In this document: positions 422 through 31,925 of the stretch, in pieces | Layout: each line of letters begins with the position of its first letter | Position numbering within the stretch: position 1 is the stretch's first letter | Source: Candidatus Nanopusillus sp. | Lineage (GTDB): Archaea; Nanobdellota; Nanobdellia; Nanobdellales; Nanobdellaceae | DNA length: 32,000 nucleotides | Assembly: GCA_049414405.1 (NCBI GenBank) | Contig: JBMSAQ010000022.1 | Coordinates: 1 to 32,000, forward strand | Direction: 5' to 3' | Made by a program: the position numbers and the translations under genes | Notes under the pieces: model-generated | Databases searched by the model: none | What the model saw: the letters and a program-made list of their open reading frames with translations, nothing else | What the model was told of the DNA's origin: nothing

Positions 422-493
422 TGGACCCGCCGGGATTTGAACCCGGGATCTCTGGCTAGCGAGGCCAGAATCCTACCACTAGACTACGGGCCC
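422..493 (-). tRNA. tRNA-Ala (anticodon CGC)
   Basis: The reverse complement reads GGGCCCGTAGTCTAGTGGTAGGATTCTGGCCTCGCTAGCCAGAGATCCCGGGTTCAAATCCCGGCGGGTCCA. It has a 7-bp acceptor stem with the G3:U70 Ala identity pair and a T-arm CCGGG/TTCAAAT/CCCGG. The anticodon arm is CTGGC/CUCGCUA/GCCAG, giving CGC. There is no intron and no encoded CCA. Confidence 0.92.
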
Positions 494-1096: not shown

Positions 1097-1366
1097 TTAT
1101 TGATTAGAATTTAATACTTTTATTTTTTCCCTTACTTTTTCCTTTAATAAATTTTCTAAGCATTTATGACATAAATACCCCCCATACTTTCTGCTAATCC
1201 TCTTTTGCGATAAGTTTAATCTTCTATATCTTGAAGGATGCAATGATGGCAATCCTTGTAATCTTCTTCCACATATTGCACATCTTGGTATATTTCCTTT
1301 CTTTAATTTGACAATTACTGATATTTTACCAGAGGGTGTTTTTCTGATTAAATATGTCTTAGCCAT
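1097..1366 (-). CDS. rpl34e: 50S ribosomal protein L34e (eL34)
   Basis: TPSGK...PRCAICGRRLQG...RISRKYGGYLCHKCL matches the L34e zinc-ribbon signature. The spacer to L14e is only 2 nt. Confidence 0.9.
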   Translation of the reverse strand: MAKTYLIRKTPSGKISVIVKLKKGNIPRCAICGRRLQGLPSLHPSRYRRLNLSQKRISRKYGGYLCHKCLENLLKEKVREKIKVLNSNQ

Positions 1367-1982
1367 TTTTATTATCTATTTTAGATTTTTTTATAAATCT
1401 TGAGTAAATAATGTTATATACTAATAAAGAAATTTGCACTAGAATATACAATACTATATATAAGAGTAAAGGATTCAACCAATTTATATTTATTATTGGT
1501 AAATAAAATGGTAAAGTGTTTGTTATAACGTTTACAGATAATAATTCTGGTTCATATGTTCCGTTTAAAGTTATTATATTGTAGTTTGCACGATAAAAAC
1601 CTAGAAAACTATTATTATAATATATAGCAAAATCTTGATTATATAATATTGGATTTGTTATTAATATACTTGTTGTATTATTTATATTTGTAATATAAAA
1701 TCCTGATTGAAAAGCAAAAATAATAAAAATTAAAACAAAAATTCCAAATATAGTAATAATTATTATGTATTTCATTATTTTTGAATATATTTTAGTAACT
1801 TCCCCCATAATACTATTTAATTCTTCTAATTTTCCAGATTTAAAACTTTCAATATATCTTTTTTGTATCTCTTGCAATTTTTTTTGATGCTCTCTTATTC
1901 CAAGCTTCTTTTCAATTATTTTTATTACTATGGTTACTAATATAACTAAAAAAAGTACATAGAAGAATAGCGTGTTCATCAT
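1359..1982 (-). CDS. membrane protein, probable DUF106/EMC3-like (archaeal YidC/Oxa1-like) insertase
   Basis: Predicted topology is TM1, then a Lys/Glu-rich coiled coil (HQKKLQEIQKRYIESFKSGKLEEL), then TM2 and TM3. It occupies the conserved slot between secY and rpl34e that the DUF106 protein holds in other archaea. An unusual Asn/Tyr-rich loop lies between TM2 and TM3. Confidence 0.45.
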   Translation of the reverse strand: MMNTLFFYVLFLVILVTIVIKIIEKKLGIREHQKKLQEIQKRYIESFKSGKLEELNSIMGEVTKIYSKIMKYIIIITIFGIFVLIFIIFAFQSGFYITNINNTTSILITNPILYNQDFAIYYNNSFLGFYRANYNIITLNGTYEPELLSVNVITNTLPFYLPIININWLNPLLLYIVLYILVQISLLVYNIIYSRFIKKSKIDNKNG

Positions 1983-3334
1983 TTTAGATATTTTCCAATT
2001 AATGGTATTAAATATAACGCATCTGCCCTCTTCAAGTCGTTATATATTTGTCCAGCTATTACTATTAATAGCAATATACTCACCCCAGATATTGCAGAAC
2101 TTAATATATCACTCAAAGATGCTAATAATCCCATTAAAAATCCAGACAAATATCCTATAGGATCTATATATTTTCTTAACATATCTTCTACAATTCTTGG
2201 ATCTCTTGTATATAATGGGGAATTTGGGTTACTTGTTAAATAATTTGCTAAATTTTTTGGATCTAAACCCGTAGAATATATCCAAAATTTAGATATTAGC
2301 ATTCCACCAACTGCAAATAATAAAAAGTAGAATATCACATGAAATATATTGAACGGGACGTATAAATATTCAATTCCAAATAGTCCGATATTTATTATTA
2401 AGTTTGGTGGGGATAATAATTGTACAATTGGATTATTAGGATCAAATCCAAATAAAGATTGTAATTGAATTATTAATGCATAAATAAATATTGCGGGAAT
2501 AACAGAGGTATATAATAATTGTATTGGATATTTAATAATTTCCCCGTTAATGTTTAGATATAATAATGGAACATCTATTTTTAGTGATTGTAAATATACT
2601 GCAAATATTAAAATTCCAATAGTAATAATTGCAGCAAATAAAAATGCAAGACCTAAATTAATATTTCCTTGAGATAAATATAAAATTCCTTCTGGTATGT
2701 ATCCTGTTGGTTGTGTAAACAGACCTGTTGAAGCAGATGGTGGGGAAAGAGGATTAAATAGTCTTAGAACTAATGCAATACTTATTGTAGTTAAAATAAT
2801 AACATTAATTCCAGATGTAATTCCATACTTATATGAAAAATCATCTAATAATAATATAATGATACCACCAATAAATAATTGTAAAAATAAAATAATGTAC
2901 AAAATTATTGGATCTATTCCTAGAAATGTGTTTGGCGATATATTTCCACTGGCGATTAAAATAATACTTTCTATTATAATAAATGTTAATGCAATAAATC
3001 TTGCATAATTGTCAAATTTGGTTTTTCCTTCATCAGTACTTATGTCAATATTTATTATCCTAAGACCAACTAGCAATTGCATAAAAATTCCAGCAATTAC
3101 TATTGGAGCGATTCCTACACTTGCCAAAGTTCCTAAATTAGATCCAAATAACCATAAAAGTTGTTCAAGTCTTGTAGAAACTTCTGGAGACATTCCAAAT
3201 AAAGGTATTGATGCTAGAACAGTATATAATGCAATTACTAATAATGTATTGTATACCCTTTCTCTTAAAGATAATGTTTTTTTTGGTTCTTCGACGGATG
3301 GTAAGTATGAGACTACTTTATCTATTGTGTTCAT
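1979..3334 (-). CDS. secY: preprotein translocase subunit SecY
   Basis: 451 aa with about 10 TM segments. The N-terminal region LRERVYNTLLVIALYTVLASIPLFGM and the overall pattern are typical of archaeal SecY/Sec61alpha. Confidence 0.93.
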   Translation of the reverse strand: MNTIDKVVSYLPSVEEPKKTLSLRERVYNTLLVIALYTVLASIPLFGMSPEVSTRLEQLLWLFGSNLGTLASVGIAPIVIAGIFMQLLVGLRIINIDISTDEGKTKFDNYARFIALTFIIIESIILIASGNISPNTFLGIDPIILYIILFLQLFIGGIIILLLDDFSYKYGITSGINVIILTTISIALVLRLFNPLSPPSASTGLFTQPTGYIPEGILYLSQGNINLGLAFLFAAIITIGILIFAVYLQSLKIDVPLLYLNINGEIIKYPIQLLYTSVIPAIFIYALIIQLQSLFGFDPNNPIVQLLSPPNLIINIGLFGIEYLYVPFNIFHVIFYFLLFAVGGMLISKFWIYSTGLDPKNLANYLTSNPNSPLYTRDPRIVEDMLRKYIDPIGYLSGFLMGLLASLSDILSSAISGVSILLLIVIAGQIYNDLKRADALYLIPLIGKYLK

Positions 3335-3366: not shown

Positions 3367-5421
3367 TTAATCAACTTTCTCTCCAGAAAATGTTTCTTGC
3401 CTTCTGCCTGTTCCTCCAAGATCCATTGGTAATTGTGAAAATATTGAAATAGAATATGGAGAGTATCTTGTATATTGAATATAATCTGGAATAATCTGTG
3501 TTCCTCCATATGGCAAGATTGTATTAAATTGGTTTATAATATTTCCATATATATTATAAGGTCTAGCACCAGTAATTAAATTATAATATTCATTTCCATA
3601 CATTGTATGAAATTGATTAGCATAATATCCACCAGGTTCATGTACAATTGTTACTTTTTTATTTTCTAATATATCTCTAATTTTCTCTAATTCTGATGCA
3701 ATAACATCATCCCAACCCATTCCTAATGGTAAATGTGTATCTTCTCCAGCTTGTGCCTCATGGACGTGTAAATGCCTAATTTCTGGTTTAATTTCTTCAA
3801 CCCATTTTAATATATCTTCTTTCTTATATCCATACTTTTCAAACATTTTTATATGTCCAACATCCAATGTAGCTCCTACTCTTTCTTTAACAAATTCATC
3901 TACACTACCATATTTTTTCTCAATTTCTTCTTTTAATTTTTGATAATTATTTATTACTTTTTTTACTTCTTCTCTTATATTATTTAATAATTTTTTCCAT
4001 ATGTCTGGTCTTGTAGCAGGTGCTCCAGGATATGATCCTTCTATATATATATAACCCAAATACTTATCAAAATCCTTATACCACTCATCTTGATTTTTAT
4101 TTATTTCCCTTTCAATTAGCATTCTAATTCCTTCAGCTATTACTTCTGGAGCTGTTTTTATTGCAACTTCTTGATATGGTTTTACAATTGGAATTGGAAA
4201 TTCTGAAAATACTGTATTTTTTAGCTGTGATAATAGACGATTTGTATATTCAATAGATGATATCATATCATTTACAAAATCAAACGTTTTATTCATATAA
4301 TAATCTTTATATGCTGGGCTACTATTATTCTGTACAACTTCTTTAGCAAATTTTGATATTTCATTTTCATAGTTTTCTATTCTCTTTAAGCTATCTTCAA
4401 AATGTTGTTTGTAGAAGGATATCTTATTTCTTACAGCATCTCTTAAATTTGGATCTACTATATCATTTATATTATTTTCTATTGCGTCAATATATTCTTT
4501 TACCTTTTCTAAGAAAGATCTATATTTCTTTAGATCGTATAGAAATTCTCCTATTTTTTCTTGATCTATGCTAGTATATCCAAAATAACTTGTTAATTGA
4601 TAATTGTCTAATAATCTTTTTTTTATTGAATAAAGGTCTCTATCAATATCATTAAATATATTCATCCATACTTTTTCATTTTCTTTATAAATTTCATCAA
4701 CAACAGAAACCGGTTTTCTTGCCCTTCCTACAGCACCAGCCAAATATTTTTCAGGCATAACAAATCCAGCATATTCATAGTTTCCATTTAGATGAATATA
4801 TGCAGCTTCATGTTTTGCAAAGGCCCAAGATGGTACATTTTTTTCTAATGTTTCCATATCAACATTATTACTAACCAACCTATTATATTGTTCTGATGTT
4901 ATAAATCCCAATCTATATAATTTCTCTGCAAAAGATTTTCTAAATTCATAATTATTTAATAGTTCTTCTTTTAATCTTTTTTCAAAATCTTTATCCCATT
5001 GTGTTAATGTAAGATCTCCAGCATGCATGTTTACCTTAATCGGTTCTCCATATATTTTTGCCATTATTCCTGCATTTTCCAATATTACTGATGTTTTGTA
5101 AGCCATCTGCTTTATATTATCTATCCTTATATTCCCTCTTTCATCTGTTGCAGGTAATTGGAAATCACTTTCGGGAGCATGGATTGTAACTTCAACATTA
5201 TTTATTCTTGCATTTCTTGCAATTTCTTCAAATATTTGTCTTGGTATATTTGCCCATCCCTTTTTTCCAGAGAAAGTAAATGTTTGTATTTCTACTCCAG
5301 GATATCCAGCAGATATTTTTGATAAATATGCTTGTAGTTGATTTACAAGTGTAGGATCTGTGCTAGTAGATATTCTCCTATTATATAATTCCTCTGGATA
5401 TTTTTTATCTTCATTATCCAT
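3367..5421 (-). CDS. xylose-isomerase-like TIM-barrel protein, endonuclease IV (AP endonuclease family 2)-like, with large internal insertion
   Basis: By-eye motifs are IHAPES (H81), NMHAGD (H133), YIEGS (E461), LDVGH (D520, H523), LHVHE (H552/H554), EDTH (D561, H563) and IVHEPG (E595). Their order and most spacings match the nine metal ligands of Nfo. About 320 aa of helical sequence is inserted between H133 and E461. Confidence 0.5.
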   Translation of the reverse strand: MDNEDKKYPEELYNRRISTSTDPTLVNQLQAYLSKISAGYPGVEIQTFTFSGKKGWANIPRQIFEEIARNARINNVEVTIHAPESDFQLPATDERGNIRIDNIKQMAYKTSVILENAGIMAKIYGEPIKVNMHAGDLTLTQWDKDFEKRLKEELLNNYEFRKSFAEKLYRLGFITSEQYNRLVSNNVDMETLEKNVPSWAFAKHEAAYIHLNGNYEYAGFVMPEKYLAGAVGRARKPVSVVDEIYKENEKVWMNIFNDIDRDLYSIKKRLLDNYQLTSYFGYTSIDQEKIGEFLYDLKKYRSFLEKVKEYIDAIENNINDIVDPNLRDAVRNKISFYKQHFEDSLKRIENYENEISKFAKEVVQNNSSPAYKDYYMNKTFDFVNDMISSIEYTNRLLSQLKNTVFSEFPIPIVKPYQEVAIKTAPEVIAEGIRMLIEREINKNQDEWYKDFDKYLGYIYIEGSYPGAPATRPDIWKKLLNNIREEVKKVINNYQKLKEEIEKKYGSVDEFVKERVGATLDVGHIKMFEKYGYKKEDILKWVEEIKPEIRHLHVHEAQAGEDTHLPLGMGWDDVIASELEKIRDILENKKVTIVHEPGGYYANQFHTMYGNEYYNLITGARPYNIYGNIINQFNTILPYGGTQIIPDYIQYTRYSPYSISIFSQLPMDLGGTGRRQETFSGEKVD

Positions 5422-5444: not shown

Positions 5445-7127
5445 TTAATAATTTAACATATTGAATGTTTTTTTAAATGTCATATATGTTTTCCATGCAG
5501 TATCTATTGTCTTTTCTTTTGTTTCTTCTATTATTAATTTTCTTTCTTCTTCAATACTTTTTCTTTTTATATTTTTTTCAATATTTGATAAATCCCTACC
5601 AAAAGTTGATATAACTTTAAGTAACCACATTATAATATTTCCTAAAGTTGGAAATATTAATGAAATACTGGATTCTTTTTTTTCTTCCTTCTTTTCCTCT
5701 TTTTTATCTTCTTTTTTTTCTTTTTCTTCGCTATCAAGATATTTTTTTATCCATGCGATACTTGATAATGATCTTTTTATTCTCCCATCTTTTTCTAACT
5801 CTTCTATAAGTTCTCTTGTCCATCTTATTTTATAAGGATCATTTCTTATTTCTTCTGGTTTTGCATCAGATTTTTCAGCAACTATTTTTAATAGTTTTTC
5901 ATCGCTTTTTATTATATCGTATAAAAATACTTCTAGAATTAAGCCAGACATACTTTTTATATAATCATCTGTTAATCCTGTTATATATGCCAAATCTTCA
6001 CTTTCTTGATTTATTATTATAGAATCATATTCTTCTTTTTCAACTAAATATGCTCTAATTACTATATCTATCCTTCCTAGGAAAGAATACATTCTTGCAT
6101 ACGTATCCGTTCTCCCAACCACAGTGGGTATCGCTCTAGTTTTCATATTTATTTCATATAACGGTATGTAATATTTTTCTATTTCTTTTCCTTCTTTTTC
6201 ATCATATTCTTTTACTTTTACCTCTTTTTGATTTGCTATTAATGAAATATTTATAATTGCCGTTTCAAATGCATTTACAACATCTACAGGTTGATCTGGA
6301 TTTTGCAATAATTTTCTTGCAAATTTAAAATATGGTTTTGCAAATTCAACATAATATAATAGAGAGCTCAATTCATGTTTTAAATAAGATTTTAATAAGA
6401 TTATTCTATCATACAAAACTTTTTTATTATTTTCAAGCCAACTATAAAAGTCTATTAATCTACTACTTAATAAATTATATATTCTTCTATTTATTATTCC
6501 ATTATTAAATAATTCATTTAAATCTCTTGGAGTAGTGTTTGCTTGATCATTAAATAATTTATTATATAATTCTTGACCTATTAATTTTTTATTCTTAAAT
6601 TTTTCAAGTTCAGATTTCAGATCTGCTAGAAAAAATAGATCTACAATACTTGGAAACCTTGATGTTTGTAAGTTAATTAAAGCACCCGTACCTCTTTTAT
6701 AATCAACATTAGATAACCACCTCTCTTTTAGTGATAAATAACTTACAAGAGCCTCTTCGGAATTTTTTGATAATAAATTTTCGTATAATACATATACTGA
6801 ATAGAGTTGTTTATATTCATTCAAAATAGAAATAATTGTTCTTGTCAATGCATTAATTAATTCTGCCAACGATCTTGCATTATTTAATACGTTTGTTAAC
6901 CTTTGTCCCATATCTCCAAAAAATGAAGATCCGACGGATGATGTAAAATCATCAGATAATTTATTAATATCCATCTTTAAACTATCTCTAATAAAATCTA
7001 CAAGCCAAAAATATATTTGTTCCATCCTTATATTTGGATTATCTAATATAAGTTTTATTTCTAATATTTTATGTTTATTGTCTTCAATCTTTTCATTTCT
7101 TAGATCATCAATTTTTATATTTTTCAT
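5445..7127 (-). CDS. hypothetical protein, 560 aa, mostly helical, with Lys/Glu-rich linker and C-terminal hydrophobic helix
   Basis: Long clean ORF lying 23 nt upstream of the TIM-barrel gene on the same strand. I recognise no family. The tract EEKEKKEDKKEEKKEEKKE (aa ~466-485) is followed by SSISLIFPTLGNIIMWLLKVISTFG. Confidence 0.7.
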   Translation of the reverse strand: MKNIKIDDLRNEKIEDNKHKILEIKLILDNPNIRMEQIYFWLVDFIRDSLKMDINKLSDDFTSSVGSSFFGDMGQRLTNVLNNARSLAELINALTRTIISILNEYKQLYSVYVLYENLLSKNSEEALVSYLSLKERWLSNVDYKRGTGALINLQTSRFPSIVDLFFLADLKSELEKFKNKKLIGQELYNKLFNDQANTTPRDLNELFNNGIINRRIYNLLSSRLIDFYSWLENNKKVLYDRIILLKSYLKHELSSLLYYVEFAKPYFKFARKLLQNPDQPVDVVNAFETAIINISLIANQKEVKVKEYDEKEGKEIEKYYIPLYEINMKTRAIPTVVGRTDTYARMYSFLGRIDIVIRAYLVEKEEYDSIIINQESEDLAYITGLTDDYIKSMSGLILEVFLYDIIKSDEKLLKIVAEKSDAKPEEIRNDPYKIRWTRELIEELEKDGRIKRSLSSIAWIKKYLDSEEKEKKEDKKEEKKEEKKESSISLIFPTLGNIIMWLLKVISTFGRDLSNIEKNIKRKSIEEERKLIIEETKEKTIDTAWKTYMTFKKTFNMLNY

Positions 7128-7191: not shown

Positions 7192-7734
7192 ATGAAAATG
7201 AATTTAATAATATTATCAAGTAGAGGGTTTGATGAAGACGATCTTTTTAACTTTTTAGATATATTGGATGGTAGAACATATATTGCTATAAGAAATAGAA
7301 AAATTGGAATAGGAAAATATAAAAGTAAAGTATTACCAGATTTTGATATACATGAAATATTCTTAATGAGAGAAAATCATTTTGATAGGTTGATATATAT
7401 TTCTGATGAAGGATATAAAGAATTTTTAAACGTAGAATCTCAAGCTATATTTACAAGATTTATAAATTCATACAGGACGGTTATATTATCTTCTTTATCA
7501 CAAATAGCATTTTTAAAATCCGGATTATTAGCTGGAAGAACAATAACATATAATTATGATGAATATCCACAATATTTAAAATTATTTCCAGATTTTGGTG
7601 TGAAATTGGTAACAAATGCAGATTATGTAGTAGATAGAAATCTAATAACTGTAAAGGGTAGAGACTCTATATATTCTTTAGGTGAAAAATTGAAAGATAT
7701 AGAAGAAGAATTAAGAAAAATTAGTAATATGTAA
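7192..7734 (+). CDS. DJ-1/PfpI-family-like protein lacking the nucleophile Cys
   Basis: By-eye alignment to PfpI: [15 protein letters not shown] aligns with VLFLTANEFEDVEL, and [26 protein letters not shown] with [39 protein letters not shown] aligns with VVVDGNWVSSR. The Cys-His dyad positions are Ser-Leu. Confidence 0.5.
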   Translation: [180 protein letters not shown]

Positions 7735-8313: not shown

Positions 8314-8343
8314 TTTATATTTTTAAACTTAAATTTTTATAAG

Positions 8344-8427
8344 CGCCGCGGGTGGGATTTGAACCCACGCCCCCTTTCGGGGATATGGTCTCGAGCCATA
8401 CCCCTTGGACCACTCGGGCACCGCGGC
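8344..8427 (-). tRNA. tRNA-Ser (anticodon CGA)
   Basis: The reverse complement reads GCCGCGGTGCCCGAGTGGTCCAAGGGGTATGGCTCGAGACCATATCCCCGAAAGGGGGCGTGGGTTCAAATCCCACCCGCGGCG. This is a class II tRNA with a long variable arm (CCCC-GAAA-GGGG). The anticodon loop CUCGAGA gives CGA and the discriminator is G. There is no intron and no encoded CCA. Confidence 0.92.
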
Positions 8428-15065: not shown

Positions 15066-15180
15066 TAGGGCGGCCAAAGTGGCCGGGAAACACCCGTACC
15101 CATTTCGAACACGGAAGTTAAGCCGGCTTACGTCCGTGCGAGTACTGGCGATGGCCGGGAAAGCACGGAAGCCGCCCGAC
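15066..15180 (+). rRNA. rrf: 5S ribosomal RNA
   Basis: GC-rich island GGGCGGCC...CACCCGTACCCATTTCGAACACGGAAGTTAAGCCGGC...GCCGCCC. Helix I pairs GGGCGGC with GCCGCCC, and the conserved loop C region is present. It is not linked to 16S or 23S in this window. The ends are good to about 3 nt. Confidence 0.93.
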
Positions 15181-15249
15181 TAAATTTATAAAAATCTTTA
15201 CGCAAATATAGAATTTTTATGGACTCGGGTCGGTTTGGAGGAATGCGGT

Positions 15250-16215
15250 ATGAGATCTAATGGATATATAAAGTTAAGTTTAGATGAGATTTTACATATA
15301 TTAGAAGAGAGGGGAGGGAATTTGAATTTTATGTTTGCAAGACAAATAGCACCATATAATATAGAAACAATATTAGCATTACTACGTATTAAAAATATAA
15401 TAGATGCATATCCAGGTAAGGTAAAAGAAGTAATTGTGGATTTTTTGCAGTGGGGGGAAGATAAGTTCTCTTTAAATAATATTGAAAAGGGAATATTTGC
15501 TGAACCTCAAATATTAGATAGTAATGGTTTAAGATATTATATAGCAGTTCAACCAAAATCTAAATTGAGAGAAGAAAAAGATATTAAAATAAAGAATATA
15601 TATTTAGATACTACTGAAATAAGAAAAATGATAGAAAAGACGGGATTAAAATATATGGAAAAATCTTTAAATCATTTAATAGATAAAGGAAAAGCAGAAT
15701 ATAGTAGAGTAAACATATTAGACTTCTGGGGATTAACAACACTATATTATATATCTGAAATATCTAGTTATATTTTTAGAATTAGTAATTATGAAATAGA
15801 GGAATTTGAAGATGAAATAAGGTTAATAAATGGTAGTAAATATCATATATATGGATACAAATTAGAATTTGAATATAAAGGAGTAAAATTGAGGTTTAGA
15901 ATATATGATATAAGTCATATCCACGAAAAGGAGATCGAAAGATATGGAAGTAAAAAGAATGGATATATAGTCTTATCATTATATTCTGGAAGTGGATATA
16001 TACTATTTGAAGAAGATCTTGAAAAATCATCAGCAGCTGAAAAAATAATAGAATTCTCTAGAAAAGCAGAAGAAAGAACAAGATATGGTATATTATTATT
16101 TGAATTAAGTGAAGAAAAATTAATAAAAAACGGAATAATTGATAAGAAAGATTATGTAAAATTTATAGGTAAAAACTATGATGTCATTATAAATACCATA
16201 ATGAAAAATATATGA
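15250..16215 (+). CDS. hypothetical protein
   Basis: I placed the start at ATG 15250, which is preceded by GGAGG (15237-15241) at an 8-nt spacing; the track start at 15235 is a TTG. I recognise no family. The stop overlaps the next start (ATGA). Confidence 0.6.
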   Translation: MRSNGYIKLSLDEILHILEERGGNLNFMFARQIAPYNIETILALLRIKNIIDAYPGKVKEVIVDFLQWGEDKFSLNNIEKGIFAEPQILDSNGLRYYIAVQPKSKLREEKDIKIKNIYLDTTEIRKMIEKTGLKYMEKSLNHLIDKGKAEYSRVNILDFWGLTTLYYISEISSYIFRISNYEIEEFEDEIRLINGSKYHIYGYKLEFEYKGVKLRFRIYDISHIHEKEIERYGSKKNGYIVLSLYSGSGYILFEEDLEKSSAAEKIIEFSRKAEERTRYGILLFELSEEKLIKNGIIDKKDYVKFIGKNYDVIINTIMKNI

Positions 16216-21807: not shown

Positions 21808-22194
21808 ATGTATAAGGTAATATCTTTTTTGTATAGGCTAAGAGAGAAGAGTGGTTTAATTATAATTGTAGAAGGTAAGAAAGATAAAGAAGTATTAAAA
21901 GAGTTTGGATTTAATAATGTATATACAATATATGAATTGAAAAAGGATGGTCGGGTATTTTTAAATTATAGAGAGGCAATTATATTAACAGATAATGATA
22001 GTAAAGGAAGAATGTTATATAAATATGTAAGAAATTTATTAGAATCTGATGGGATAATTGTAAATGATATTGAAAGGAGAAAATTCTTTAAATATTTTAG
22101 AGTAAGAGAAGTTGAAGATTTAAGGAAACATATTGAGAAAATAAAGTTTTATATTAATTATTTTGAGAATCTAGAGAAAATTTTGTACTCTTGA
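21808..22194 (+). CDS. small Toprim-domain protein (COG1658 / RNase M5-like)
   Basis: LIIIVEGKKDKEVLKEFGF supplies the conserved Glu and AIILTDNDSKGRMLY supplies the DxD motif, in a 128-aa protein. Confidence 0.65.
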   Translation: MYKVISFLYRLREKSGLIIIVEGKKDKEVLKEFGFNNVYTIYELKKDGRVFLNYREAIILTDNDSKGRMLYKYVRNLLESDGIIVNDIERRKFFKYFRVREVEDLRKHIEKIKFYINYFENLEKILYS

Positions 22195-23545
22195 TTTTCT
22201 TGATTGGGTAGGATGAAGGGTTTTTAATCAATGAACAGATATTATCTGGAGTACATACTCCAATATCTTTATAATATATTTCATTATTGCAATTTGGAGT
22301 TAAATATTTTTTATTATTTTTATATAATTTTTTGTGCCATTCTAGTTGATATTCTATATATCTATCTTTTAACGGATCTTGTAAACTTTCATTCCACTCT
22401 TTTATATATTTTTCAATTTTATTCCAATCCCACCCAATATTTGCGAAGAAATTTATTAATATAAATAGAGATCTTTTTCTACCATCATCCATTTCTTTAT
22501 TGTTTAATATATTTTTTATACATGGGGGAAATAAATCTTCATTTATTTTTATTTTTCTTTTCTTTATTTCTTCTACATCTTTTTTTATTTCTTCAAATCC
22601 TTCCTGATTTTTGTAATTTTCTGCTAATTTGCTAAATTTTATTATTTCAAATTCATTTTTTATTTTCCATAATAATGAATCATTGATTAATTTTTTTAAT
22701 TCCTTAGATTCTTTTCTTTCTAAATCTTCGGTTAAATATGGTATGCCTTCATACGAATAATTGTTTATATTAGAATCTTCGGGATTTAACTTTTTTATAT
22801 AATTCTCTTTTATCGGTATGGATAAATTTTCCGTTTTTTCATTTATCGAATATAAGCATCTAATTAAGTGTCTTGATGATATTAATACTGTATCTATTTC
22901 AATAATATCATATGGATTAAATTCTTCTATATCATTTACCCCATATTCTTTTAATTCATCTTCACTAAATTTTAATAATATTACCTTCTTTAATTTTTCT
23001 TCTATTTCTTTTGATATATATGATGCTAAGATTCTTGCAAGATCAGGGAATAATTTCCTAGTTTCTTCTTCTACAAGATTATCTTTTTTGTATACATTTA
23101 TTATTTCTGGAAATATTTCCCAAGGAATTGCTATATGAAAACCTTTTCCCCCAGAATATTTTATATATACGGGATTAATATTTTTTTCTTTTAAGTAATC
23201 AAATATAATCCTTGCAGCAATTTTAGATAGATCTAAAGATTTTGCATCTATATCTATTATGAAATCCCATCCTAATCTATATTCATTTAAATCCTTTTTT
23301 GAAACTTTCTCACTTAAAATATTTAAATCAACCCATCTTTCAATCGATATATGAAATGAAATAGCACCTTTTTTGATATAATTTATTATATCTTCTTTTG
23401 TTTCTATTTTTGATGGCCTATGTCCAAAATTATTATTTGATAATAAATATCCAACTTCTCTATTTTGTGAAATTTTTACCATATCTTCCAAAATCTCTTT
23501 GTTATTTTGATAAAATTTAATTAAATCATTTATCATTATGCTCAT
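22154..23545 (-). CDS. DNA primase, single-chain fusion of the PriS catalytic domain and the PriL Fe-S C-terminal domain
   Basis: AEP motifs are WDFIIDIDA (DxD), YSGGKGFHIAIPW and IEIDTVLISSRHLIRCLYSINEKT. These are followed by LFPPCIKNIL...GRKRSLFILINFF...YLTPNCNN...GVCTPDNICSLIKNP, the four-Cys PriL-CTD pattern. Confidence 0.85.
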   Translation of the reverse strand: MSIMINDLIKFYQNNKEILEDMVKISQNREVGYLLSNNNFGHRPSKIETKEDIINYIKKGAISFHISIERWVDLNILSEKVSKKDLNEYRLGWDFIIDIDAKSLDLSKIAARIIFDYLKEKNINPVYIKYSGGKGFHIAIPWEIFPEIINVYKKDNLVEEETRKLFPDLARILASYISKEIEEKLKKVILLKFSEDELKEYGVNDIEEFNPYDIIEIDTVLISSRHLIRCLYSINEKTENLSIPIKENYIKKLNPEDSNINNYSYEGIPYLTEDLERKESKELKKLINDSLLWKIKNEFEIIKFSKLAENYKNQEGFEEIKKDVEEIKKRKIKINEDLFPPCIKNILNNKEMDDGRKRSLFILINFFANIGWDWNKIEKYIKEWNESLQDPLKDRYIEYQLEWHKKLYKNNKKYLTPNCNNEIYYKDIGVCTPDNICSLIKNPSSYPIKKIKSTKFSLDSQNN

Positions 23546-29386: not shown

Positions 29387-29703
29387 TTAAATATAATTAG
29401 TATATATGGATCAAAATAATCTTGGCCAGCATATAAATATTCAAATACCGGTCTATAATTTTGTATATATGTAGAATCTACATGTTTTCCAAAATAACAT
29501 ACTGTAATACTATTATTTGTTAAGTTTATTATCTTATATACATATAGATTATTGTTGCATGAAGAATTTAAGTAAATTAAATTATTAGGATCAAAAGTAT
29601 AAATATTGTAATTATTATATTTACTATAATAAGTATATAAAAAGAAAAATGTTAATATTGTTATTGAAAATGCTAATTCGACCATAATTATCCAACCTCT
29701 CAT
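29383..29703 (-). CDS. putative pilin-like protein
   Basis: N-terminus MRG|WIIMVELAFSITILTFFFLY. It is 106 aa, Asn/Tyr-rich, with two Cys. Confidence 0.45.
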   Translation of the reverse strand: MRGWIIMVELAFSITILTFFFLYTYYSKYNNYNIYTFDPNNLIYLNSSCNNNLYVYKIINLTNNSITVCYFGKHVDSTYIQNYRPVFEYLYAGQDYFDPYILIIFK

Positions 29704-31925
29704 TTTATATATATTATTAATTGATCTTTATATAATGCATTTATTATCGTATTATTTAATACATATATATTAAAGCTTTCAGAATATCTGTAATTATTCA
29801 CAATATTCCCTACGTATACTGTACCGTTAAATATTGTTATATTTAAATTATTAAAATAAAAATATACATCTTGATAGTTTTTAGATATATTAATTAAATT
29901 ATTTAAATTAATTACATTTATTGGTTCAATATAATTTATTTTGATATATGGAATTTGGGTAGAAAATGCTAAATATAATGCTGTTTGTCCATCTAAATTT
30001 GGGTTTGAATATAGATAAAAATAATAATTTAGATAACTATATTTATAATTTAATGTTGCATTTGTGAAATAAAGATTATTATAGTAGTCATACGATGAAA
30101 CATAAGAAATATTTATTATAGGATTATAATTTGTGTATAATATAGAATTTAAGTGTCCTGAACAAATAAAAGTTTGTGTGTAGCATCTTCTTAATATTAT
30201 ACCATTTTTATATTCATGATATAGATATCCATTATATAAATCGTCTAGATCAAATATCTTATTATAAATGTTTGTAGATTTTAAAATAAATCCATATTTG
30301 GGTTGAAAAGTGTTCCAAAATATCATATTATTTGAATAATAATATTTTTGCGTATTAAATATATACCAATAAGTGTTAGAAAATATTATATTCTTTATTG
30401 ATAAATTTGTAGAATTATATAAATACAATAAAGCTAATGAGGCATTATAAATATAGGGAGTTAAATTATAAGGTCCATATTCAGAAGTATAAAATGAAAA
30501 TCCAACTTTAATATATGAAAGAAGGTTTGTAGAATAAGTTGTTGGAATGGAATAATAGCTTCTATTATACATACCTGTTATGTAAGAAAAATATGCTAAA
30601 TTATTATTATATATTGCAAGATTATTATAAGAATTTGGTAATGAAATTTTTCCCTTATCTAGATCGTTATATTGAGAAAAATCATAAGTTATATTTGGAC
30701 CTATAATAAATTTATAATTTTTAGTTAAATTTGGTTGATAAATTATTCTTGTATTTGGTATTACATTATATGGAATTAAATTTATATAATATGCATTAAT
30801 ATTTTGACCAGATACTTGTAACTTAACCTTGTCCCCATCATTATAACAATAATAAACATATAAAGAATCTGAATTTCTAGAAGATTGTAGAGTTATATTA
30901 CAATTATTTCCCAATTGCATATAGGCATTATTAGATGGTATTAAATTTTGAATATTGTTTTGAATATTAAATAATATTAAATAATTGCCTTTTGGAATTC
31001 TATTATTATAAGTAATTGTAAAGGTATTATATCGTATGCAAAAATTACCGTAATATAGAGAACAAGAATAAATATTATTTCCCGGATTCATATATGAAAC
31101 ATTTATAGGAGTATCATTTCTCCAATATTGGCTGAATTGTTGATAACTTTGATAACTAAAATTATCATATACTAGGAATATTCTTTTTCCATCAATTGAA
31201 TAAATACTTATTTCATTTATCGGAGAAATATTTAATATTATATAGCCATATGAAGATATATTTAAACCAACCCAAATTCCATAGGCACCATTATTAAAGC
31301 TATCACAATTTAGATTATTGTTTAAATAACAAAAATAATAATTATTTTCATTTAAATCTTTTACAGATAAATTGTAACCATTTTGTAGCCAATAAAGTAT
31401 AACAGTAGAAGTTATGAATACAGGATAATTGATTAAATTTTGGTTTGATGGATTTGAAACATTTATTAAAACATATTGGGGTTGACTATTATCTATATTA
31501 AAATTTAGAAAATTTGCATAAAAAAACACCCCGACATTTGGATCTAGATATGTATTATTTGTATTATTTAATACCCCAGAATACTTTGTTAAAAAAGATA
31601 TATTCAATGGGTAATAAATTGGAAATGATGTACAAAAATCTTTGTATGCATTTTTATAAATTAAATCGTCATATATTGGAGAATTTGGTAAGCATTGATA
31701 ATACATAGATAAAGGTATTGAAACATTTAGAGATAACAAATAATATTTGGTTTTGATAGAATTCATTATATCATTTATATAATTATTATAATAGTTTATT
31801 TGATTATAATTACTAATATTGTTTATTAAATATCCTTTATAAACTGTTAAATAAAATGTTAAAAATGAAATAAAAATTACAATGGCAATTATACCCTCTA
31901 CTTCTTTTATTATCCCTCTAACCAT
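29700..31925 (-). CDS. large (741 aa) Asn/Tyr-rich putative surface protein with prepilin-like N-terminus
   Basis: N-terminus MVRG|IIKEVEGIIAIVIFISFLTFYL. I count roughly 26 N-x-S/T sequons by eye and about a dozen Cys. It is strongly depleted in Lys and Glu relative to its neighbours. Confidence 0.55.
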   Translation of the reverse strand: MVRGIIKEVEGIIAIVIFISFLTFYLTVYKGYLINNISNYNQINYYNNYINDIMNSIKTKYYLLSLNVSIPLSMYYQCLPNSPIYDDLIYKNAYKDFCTSFPIYYPLNISFLTKYSGVLNNTNNTYLDPNVGVFFYANFLNFNIDNSQPQYVLINVSNPSNQNLINYPVFITSTVILYWLQNGYNLSVKDLNENNYYFCYLNNNLNCDSFNNGAYGIWVGLNISSYGYIILNISPINEISIYSIDGKRIFLVYDNFSYQSYQQFSQYWRNDTPINVSYMNPGNNIYSCSLYYGNFCIRYNTFTITYNNRIPKGNYLILFNIQNNIQNLIPSNNAYMQLGNNCNITLQSSRNSDSLYVYYCYNDGDKVKLQVSGQNINAYYINLIPYNVIPNTRIIYQPNLTKNYKFIIGPNITYDFSQYNDLDKGKISLPNSYNNLAIYNNNLAYFSYITGMYNRSYYSIPTTYSTNLLSYIKVGFSFYTSEYGPYNLTPYIYNASLALLYLYNSTNLSIKNIIFSNTYWYIFNTQKYYYSNNMIFWNTFQPKYGFILKSTNIYNKIFDLDDLYNGYLYHEYKNGIILRRCYTQTFICSGHLNSILYTNYNPIINISYVSSYDYYNNLYFTNATLNYKYSYLNYYFYLYSNPNLDGQTALYLAFSTQIPYIKINYIEPINVINLNNLINISKNYQDVYFYFNNLNITIFNGTVYVGNIVNNYRYSESFNIYVLNNTIINALYKDQLIIYIK

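Follow-up and report, generated by a model that had tools for sequence, protein, structure and literature searches.

The ligands of Escherichia coli endonuclease IV (Nfo) are H69, H109, E145, D179, H182, H216, D229, H231, and E261. To our knowledge, the enzymes with a three-metal site in a triosephosphate isomerase (TIM)-barrel fold are phosphodiesterases (Nfo, UVDE), and the one- or two-metal sugar enzymes of the same superfamily, with their E-D-H-E set, come without two N-terminal histidines and a D-x-H pair. Another member of this fold is MJ1311 of Methanocaldococcus jannaschii (PDB 3WQO; 293 amino acids [aa]), which has been listed as a predicted EndoIV homologue of that organism (PMC2770678). 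Here, we analyze a relative of MJ1311 encoded in a 32,000-nucleotide (nt) stretch of DNA from Candidatus Nanopusillus sp. (contig JBMSAQ010000022.1, positions 1 to 32,000; hereafter, the window). Its gene occupies 3367..5421 on the minus strand and encodes, from an ATG start, a protein of 684 aa plus stop codon (open reading frame [ORF] list; Pfam PF01261 above cutoff). A sequence-only reading of the window had proposed an endonuclease IV-like TIM barrel whose metal ligands are split by a long helical insertion. We find that this split-barrel architecture is common to a protein family spread across the GTDB phylum Nanoarchaeota, including Nanopusillus, Woesearchaeota, and Pacearchaeota.

Barrel fold, family, and metal ligands

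With 39.8 bits, the window protein exceeded the cutoff (31.1) of the Pfam model PF01261 (xylose isomerase-like TIM barrel, AP_endonuc_2), its strongest stretch (aa 507–573) falling on profile positions 145–206, and a member of the family from Woesearchaeota scored 42.1 bits against the same model. While the C-terminal part of the barrel lies on profile positions 145–206/230, the first 140 aa alone match positions 6–73 at a sub-threshold E-value of 0.0021, which is weak by itself. Because the two matches are collinear, the N-terminal and C-terminal halves are best read as parts of one barrel. Scanning the N-terminal halves of 22 members gave PF01261 as the commonest match, yet only four of the 22 reached it.

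Structure prediction agreed with the profile matches. An AlphaFold2 (AF2) model from a 140-sequence alignment (predicted local distance difference test [pLDDT] 88, predicted template modelling score 0.87, all five models at least 86) replaced a first run on 11 close homologues, for which pLDDT was 70 and the Foldseek matches were uninformative. The replacement model contains eight barrel strands, four before the insert (18–20, 42–46, 77–81, and 129–133) and four after it (457–461, 515–520, 548–553, and 591–594), with the helical insert placed between strands 4 and 5 and a hairpin (555–564) bearing D561 and H563; low confidence was confined to the tail from residue 621 on and to two loops. The collinear PF01261 matches and these eight strands bear out the earlier claim that both halves form a single xylose-isomerase-fold barrel, and together they show the gene product as a predicted (beta/alpha)8 barrel of the xylose-isomerase-like (AP_endonuc_2) superfamily. 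The N-terminal half-barrel (aa 1–136; 5014..5421, minus strand; AF2 and PF01261) supplies strands 1–4 with E44, H81, and H133, and the C-terminal half-barrel (aa 456–600; 3622..4056, minus strand; AF2, Pfam, and an alignment with MJ1311 at E 1e-11 for the domain) supplies strands 5–8 with E461, D520, H523, H552, D/E555, D561, H563, and E595.

When the model was compared with solved structures, Foldseek returned high-probability local matches to Bacillus anthracis endonuclease IV (1xp3; probability 1.00, 128 columns, root-mean-square deviation 4.0), SacUVDE, UlaE, glucose isomerase, and DgpB-C, and, in a viral library, to giant-virus apurinic/apyrimidinic (AP) endonucleases. No match had an E-value below about 0.02, a poor figure that we attribute to the insert, since it breaks the local alignment. 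Searches of the PDB with the full protein, either as a single sequence or as a shallow profile, gave nothing or coiled-coil noise.

The family is large. An exhaustive HMMER search recovered 282 clusters (at 50% identity) with E <1e-3, at least 170 of them with E <1e-10; nearly all of the 150 best representatives measure 586–721 aa, except for a few short or truncated entries, and the majority match in two stretches. With each GTDB species represented by one genome, a scan located 498 stretches that encode relatives, the best 80 of which belong to Nanopusillus, Nanobsidianus, Nanopusillaceae, Woesearchaeota, Pacearchaeota, and unclassified Nanoarchaeota or 'archaeon' metagenome-assembled genomes (MAGs). 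Close homologues (n = 63), named as hypothetical proteins or sugar phosphate isomerases, occur in Nanopusillus and Nanopusillaceae; the nearest, at 80–90% identity, are from Candidatus Nanopusillus, followed at 43–54% by strain YN1 and Nanopusillaceae MAGs. The protein profile search for homologues returned matches from Nanopusillus alone, a homologue search with a marine relative returned no Nanoarchaeum equitans protein (which does not prove absence), and the viral contigs searched held no relatives of the TIM-barrel protein.

For the conservation counts, 141 full-length members were aligned with MAFFT; these share ~20% identity with the query. The residues singled out in the sequence-only reading all lie where it had placed them: H81 (TIHAP), H133 (NMHAGD), E461 (YIEGS), D520 and H523 (LDVGH), H552 and H554 (LHVHE), D561 and H563 (EDTH), and E595 (VHEPG). 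Six of these (H81, H133, E461, D520, H552, and E595) are invariant in 141 of 141 members, and H523, like E44, is kept in 138. H554, by contrast, which had been offered as an alternative ligand, has to be dropped: the position is not conserved and mostly holds T or S. The equivalent of Nfo H216 is therefore taken to be H552, and the conserved acid that follows it is D/E555, a D or an E in every member. The D561/H563 pair is present as D-x-H in 102 members and gives way to H-x-E in about 34, which looks like a compensated swap of ligand types, with one imidazole and one carboxylate still offered to the predicted site. Members of the H-x-E type such as P0109, P0145, and P0157 read 'NFGxEHTELP' around the columns aligned to aa 559–563 of the window protein.

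The register with Nfo was read from an hhalign comparison of the spliced family profile, from which the insert had been removed, with the E. coli sequence (from NC_000913.3). It pairs H133 with H109, E461 with E145, D520/H523 with D179/H182, H552 with H216, D561/H563 with D229/H231, and E595 with E261; H81 lies outside its coverage and was assigned by its HAP motif and its position on strand 3 only. On this alignment and the conservation counts, nine putative Nfo-type ligands of a three-metal centre are shown to be kept, and the ligand assignment holds. We argue for a working metal site because six ligands are invariant and the third-site swap is compensated at ~20% identity, and for an active three-metal hydrolase because the nine-ligand site is strictly conserved, including the N-terminal histidines and the third-site pair that the sugar enzymes lack.

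The same evidence bears on whether the protein might instead be a sugar or sugar-phosphate isomerase, epimerase, or dehydratase. Several members carry the JGI name 'sugar phosphate isomerase/epimerase', UlaE, glucose isomerase, and 3p6l are among the weak Foldseek matches, and there is faint similarity to fructoselysine 3-epimerase and hydroxypyruvate isomerase; more generally, the sugar isomerases and epimerases (UlaE, D-tagatose/psicose 3-epimerase, xylose isomerase) share with the family the TIM barrel and the H-x-D and E motifs of strands 5–8. Yet these Foldseek and hidden Markov model matches are all weak, with NF007360 (fructoselysine 3-epimerase) and TIGR03234 (hydroxypyruvate isomerase) reaching 13–26 bits where their cutoffs stand at 305 and 353. 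Moreover, the family keeps both N-terminal histidines and the D-x-H (or H-x-E) third-site pair, and neither a conserved orphan partner nor a disordered tail, both described below, is a feature of such enzymes. We therefore judge a sugar enzyme to be quite improbable.

The helical insertion and the C-terminal tail

The sequence-only reading had counted 328 residues between H133 and E461 and had placed an insertion at aa 137–455 (nt 4057–5013); the coordinates confirm both. All 141 members carry an insert between these two ligands (214–347 aa, median 259), so that the insertion is an architecture of the whole family and not a peculiarity of the window gene. Nanopusillaceae proteins have ~50 extra residues in its first part.

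The AF2 model divides this segment in two. The inserted helical domain proper (aa 137–415; 4177..5013, minus strand; pLDDT mostly >90) is predicted to consist of short helices (144–201), a beta-hairpin (204–221), and four long helices (240–278, 287–318, 324–365, and 369–407). It is followed by a return segment (aa 416–455; 4057..4176, minus strand) equivalent to barrel helix alpha-4, in which a 34-residue helix (416–449), itself preceded by a short strand, stands directly before strand 457–461. The return helix has the family consensus 'TFxNxAxxxYKK', and in the spliced profile its alignment with MJ1311 and Nfo runs through the splice point. Taken together, the models show barrel helix alpha-4 as expanded into a predicted helical domain of about 260–320 aa.

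In sequence, the insert is poorly conserved (top-residue frequency 0.19–0.24), except for N248, W252, and P411 at ~97%. Against the PDB it matched generic or designed helical bundles only, and it resembles weakly some lipid- or membrane-binding helical bundles, namely ApoLp-III (E 0.0098), BAR, and apolipoprotein A-IV. The sole PADLOC match, a coiled-coil-type one to LeoBC (E 1.5e-4), also lies inside the insert, and there was none for the partner. Homology of the insert with the partner or with either of two further genes found near relatives (the 'mid' ORF and the nucleotidyltransferase; see below) was ruled out by hhalign.

Behind the barrel follows a Tyr/Gly-rich tail (aa 601–684; 3370..3621, minus strand) with the motif ...YWNQ...GYG..LPE.HF..YG.GFS.LP.ELGG....SRFSG.P. 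The sequence-only reading had called it an 85-aa tail rich in Tyr, Asn, and Gly, which is right for Tyr (12.9% versus 6.3% in the rest of the protein) and Gly (10.6% versus 4.7%) but hardly for Asn (8.2% versus 7.2%). The tail is conserved like the barrel (top-residue frequency 0.47 versus 0.47–0.55), and its pLDDT falls below 50 from residue 621 onwards. A stretch that takes its fold only on a partner would be expected to behave in this way, conserved in sequence but placed with low confidence by AF2. Loci with and without an adjacent partner gene both keep the motif, so that we discarded a dependence of the tail on this adjacency.

Partner gene and genomic context

In the window, the TIM-barrel gene is the middle one of three co-oriented genes: upstream lies the orphan partner gene (560 aa; 5445..7127, minus strand; gap of 23 nt) and downstream secY (1979..3334, minus strand; gap of 32 nt; Pfam SecY, E 3.4e-43). 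This neighborhood, including the shared strand and both gaps, had been described beforehand and is borne out by the ORF coordinates. Homologues of the partner lie upstream of the TIM-barrel gene, on its strand, in 55 of 82 related loci. They are directly adjacent (23–25 nt) in Nanopusillaceae, adjacent also in strain YN1, and present in 41 of the 55 Woese/Pacearchaeota loci whose upstream sequence reaches 3 kb or more, as well as in three loci (L084–L086) encoding more distant relatives of the window protein. Across the phylum the partner is ~500–560 aa long, and searches of Pfam, NCBIfam, PADLOC, and the PDB gave nothing for it, even with 27 members scanned singly. A ~355-aa gene that takes its place in some loci proved unrelated to it.

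The usual order in Woese/Pacearchaeota is partner, a low-complexity 'mid' ORF of ~190 aa, TIM-barrel gene, and a Pol-beta-type nucleotidyltransferase. Rich in K, E, S, and P and probably disordered, the 'mid' ORF (for example, L012:5278-5886 and L019:5333-5914) is found directly upstream of the TIM-barrel gene in 51 of 66 loci, with a mean identity of 18% and no family match. The nucleotidyltransferase (~285 aa; NTP_transf_2/Polbeta plus a further C-terminal domain; for example, L015:7853-8770 and L022:6894-7772) stands directly downstream in 50 of 60 Woese/Pacearchaeota loci and is conserved at 56% mean identity. Neither gene has a homologue in the window, and the 'mid' ORF is absent from Nanopusillaceae too. 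In L084, a 287-aa lipoprotein-like gene (6092-6955; signal peptide and Cys lipobox) sits between partner and TIM-barrel gene and is related neither to the 'mid' ORF nor to the nucleotidyltransferase.

secY adjoins the TIM-barrel gene only in Nanopusillaceae loci and other close relatives (L001–L010, L084–L086) and is not adjacent in Woese/Pacearchaeota loci, whose flanks hold housekeeping and translation genes such as those for GluRS, PPDK, and L10e. The secY adjacency is thus specific to thermophilic lineages and lies outside the conserved module. Given that the partner co-occurs with the TIM-barrel gene phylum-wide and that the flanks are housekeeping genes, we take these two genes, in a core chromosomal setting, as the conserved unit. 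An origin in a defence system or mobile element was ruled out by the housekeeping flanks, the lack of viral relatives, and the lack of a defence model match.

Given how much of the module lies outside the barrel, one may ask whether bundle, tail, and partner form a structural or scaffolding assembly in which the barrel is a catalytically irrelevant relic. Over half of the conserved mass falls to insert, tail, and partner, conservation of the tail equals that of the barrel, and a low-complexity ORF separates partner and enzyme gene in most Woese/Pacearchaeota loci. Without a working metal site, however, six invariant ligands and a compensated swap at the third site would be hard to explain at such low identity, and we give a pure scaffold almost no credence.

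The remaining genes of the AT-rich window (~25% G+C) are mostly of the housekeeping kind (TrpRS, TruD, translin, an M50 protease, a fused PriS-PriL primase, GluRS, and S4e), the primase being a 463-aa ORF (22154-23545, minus strand) that matches both PF01896 (small subunit) and PF04104 (large subunit). On the 3' side of secY, the ORF list gives a 207-aa membrane protein (1359-1982, minus strand), for which Pfam offers only weak, unrelated matches, and then L34e and L14e; at the position of this membrane protein, L084 has an EMC3/TMCO1-like (Oxa1-type insertase) gene. A 180-aa ORF (7192-7734, plus strand) that runs divergently from the partner has no Pfam match and may be a degenerate homologue of the DJ-1/PfpI gene found at its position in L084 and L085. 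Two further ORFs, one of 741 aa (29700-31925, minus strand) and one of 326 aa (15235-16215, plus strand), drew no Pfam match up to E 0.001. RNA genes in the window include a stand-alone 5S rRNA (15066-15180, plus strand; 80 bits), tRNA-Ala(CGC) (422-493, minus strand), and tRNA-Ser(CGA) (8343-8427, minus strand).

Proposed function and known relatives

As to what this enzyme might do, we regard it as an even call that it is a three-metal phosphodiesterase that acts jointly with the orphan partner and probably targets the ends of nucleic acids or AP sites, the substrate being the weakest step of this proposal. A metal-activated water would attack the phosphodiester, as in Nfo. The insert, which in the model leaves the barrel right after the strand-4 ligand and on the catalytic face, could function as a cap, select the substrate, or offer a platform for docking, and insert, tail, or both may dock the orphan partner. 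On a nucleic acid, the candidate reactions would be incision at AP sites or removal of 3'-blocking phosphates to leave 3'-OH ends, and such ends are what a Pol-beta-type nucleotidyltransferase needs. A nucleic-acid substrate seems the most economical guess on three counts: the exact register with Nfo, the listing of MJ1311 as the EndoIV homologue of M. jannaschii (PMC2770678), and the nucleotidyltransferase encoded downstream in most Woese/Pacearchaeota loci. A wider picture, speculative and on balance doubtful, would be that of a two-protein machine specific to Nanoarchaeota, in which an Nfo-type phosphodiesterase has been taken out of base-excision repair and either processes phosphodiester-linked material that these biosynthetically deficient symbionts need from their hosts (nucleic acids for nucleotide salvage, or lipid head groups) or heals RNA or DNA 3' ends for the nucleotidyltransferase, with the insert and the disordered tail as parts for assembly and substrate handling.

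Several observations weigh against a nucleic-acid phosphodiesterase of the Nfo type. Exact as its register is, the hhalign match between the spliced profile and one Nfo sequence is a weak one (E 0.0033, probability 10%) that extends over strands 4–8 only; forcing it to full length (mact 0.01) gave a meaningless N-terminal alignment. Searched alone against the PDB, the N-terminal half found no TIM barrel, only spurious leucine-rich-repeat matches. No Nfo model came up for either version of the protein, full or spliced, with E allowed up to 1 or 0.1, and UVDE and the other equivalog models gave no match either. The DNA-inserting loop of Nfo ('HDSYLINL') is not conserved in the family, which reads 'SxHAPxxDPxGF' in its place; Tyr72 and Leu73 of the E. 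coli loop reportedly insert into DNA, and position 84 of the family is I, L, V, or M across its members and E in the window protein. There is no basic region, with barrel, insert, and tail all neutral to slightly acidic (median net charges –4 to 0), and the structure of MJ1311 is said to show no DNA-binding groove. Finally, N. equitans has an ordinary, abundant endonuclease IV of 293 aa, NEQ368 (PMC3149612), so that Nanoarchaeota are not known to need a replacement AP endonuclease. As for the genomes that carry the family, a canonical nfo or an insertion-less paralogue was found neither in the window nor in ~0.9 Mb of related loci, which is too little sequence to speak for a genome.

Some of these points would fit a three-metal phosphodiesterase with another kind of substrate, for example the head group of a phospholipid or glycerophosphodiester, or else, as for CbiR, a cofactor that contains a nucleotide. 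In these symbionts, which are poor in biosynthesis, it would salvage or remodel host-derived molecules, and the helical bundle would bind the lipid or carrier. The best NCBIfam similarity of the family is to CbiR, a phosphodiesterase that acts on a cofactor; the insert weakly resembles ApoLp-III, BAR, and apolipoprotein A-IV; basic region and Nfo DNA loop are missing; and in thermophilic lineages the gene shares a block with secY and the gene for an EMC3-like insertase. These similarities are all sub-threshold, though, and typical of any long helical bundle, and from its sequence the enzyme has neither a signal peptide nor a transmembrane segment. Nor does the secY adjacency extend to most of the phylum, the neighbors in Woese/Pacearchaeota being the nucleotidyltransferase and translation genes. 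We consider a non-nucleic-acid substrate unlikely, and keep a phosphodiesterase acting on nucleic acids as our working proposal.

Whatever the substrate, the gene pair deserves attention. Nanoarchaeota genomes are tiny, and the genes they retain are mostly thought to be indispensable, many conserved ones being unnamed. The analysis defines one such pair, a predicted enzyme with a recognizable Nfo-type metal centre and an unprecedented insertion and tail, plus its orphan partner. If the enzyme were a true AP endonuclease, it would fill a gap in the DNA-repair inventory and show a repair enzyme rebuilt around an accessory domain; if its substrate is another, it would point to a phylum-specific process, possibly tied to host dependence. 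The family is well defined and widespread, and it is directly testable in vitro.

How, then, does the family stand among described proteins? CbiR (NF041277), a cobamide-remodelling phosphodiesterase of the AP_endonuc_2 type, aligns over ~95 residues of the C-terminal half at 25.4–28 bits (E ~1e-6), far under its cutoff of 105 bits, and has no insertion; what it does illustrate is that this fold and metal site are able to hydrolyse phosphodiesters other than DNA. With Nfo, the family shares the fold, an H81 set in a 'HAP' motif like the strand-3 histidine of Nfo, and a segment, 'HLxDN...G..D.H...G.G', that resembles a 22-residue stretch of the E. coli enzyme, whereas the segment between strands 4 and 5 measures 36 residues in Nfo and 328 in the window protein. 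PDB profile searches returned no Nfo chain at E up to 10. Of the earlier label 'endonuclease IV-like', the TIM barrel and the ligand register with Nfo have therefore stood; membership in the Nfo family is not supported, given that no Nfo family model matches and that the closest solved relative is MJ1311. On sequence grounds, we would thus place the window protein in the PF01261 superfamily as a relative of MJ1311, and not demonstrably in the Nfo family.

MJ1311 is the only significant relative in the PDB (E 4.5e-13 for the spliced profile, 3.5e-14 for that of the full family). The alignment is collinear, and the motifs HAP, VHPG, LEN, FDIGH, HVHAHD, DDEH, and SIEN in its aligned segments match the ligand motifs of the family. 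Literature searches turned up nothing on the family, its insertion, or the partner. Fold and metal centre are thus already known; what is, as far as we found, undescribed are the inserted domain, the conserved tail, and the orphan gene, all three phylum-wide. Where MJ1311 is a plain single-domain barrel, the family adds 214–347 residues between strands 4 and 5, a conserved tail of ~80 aa, and a partner gene.

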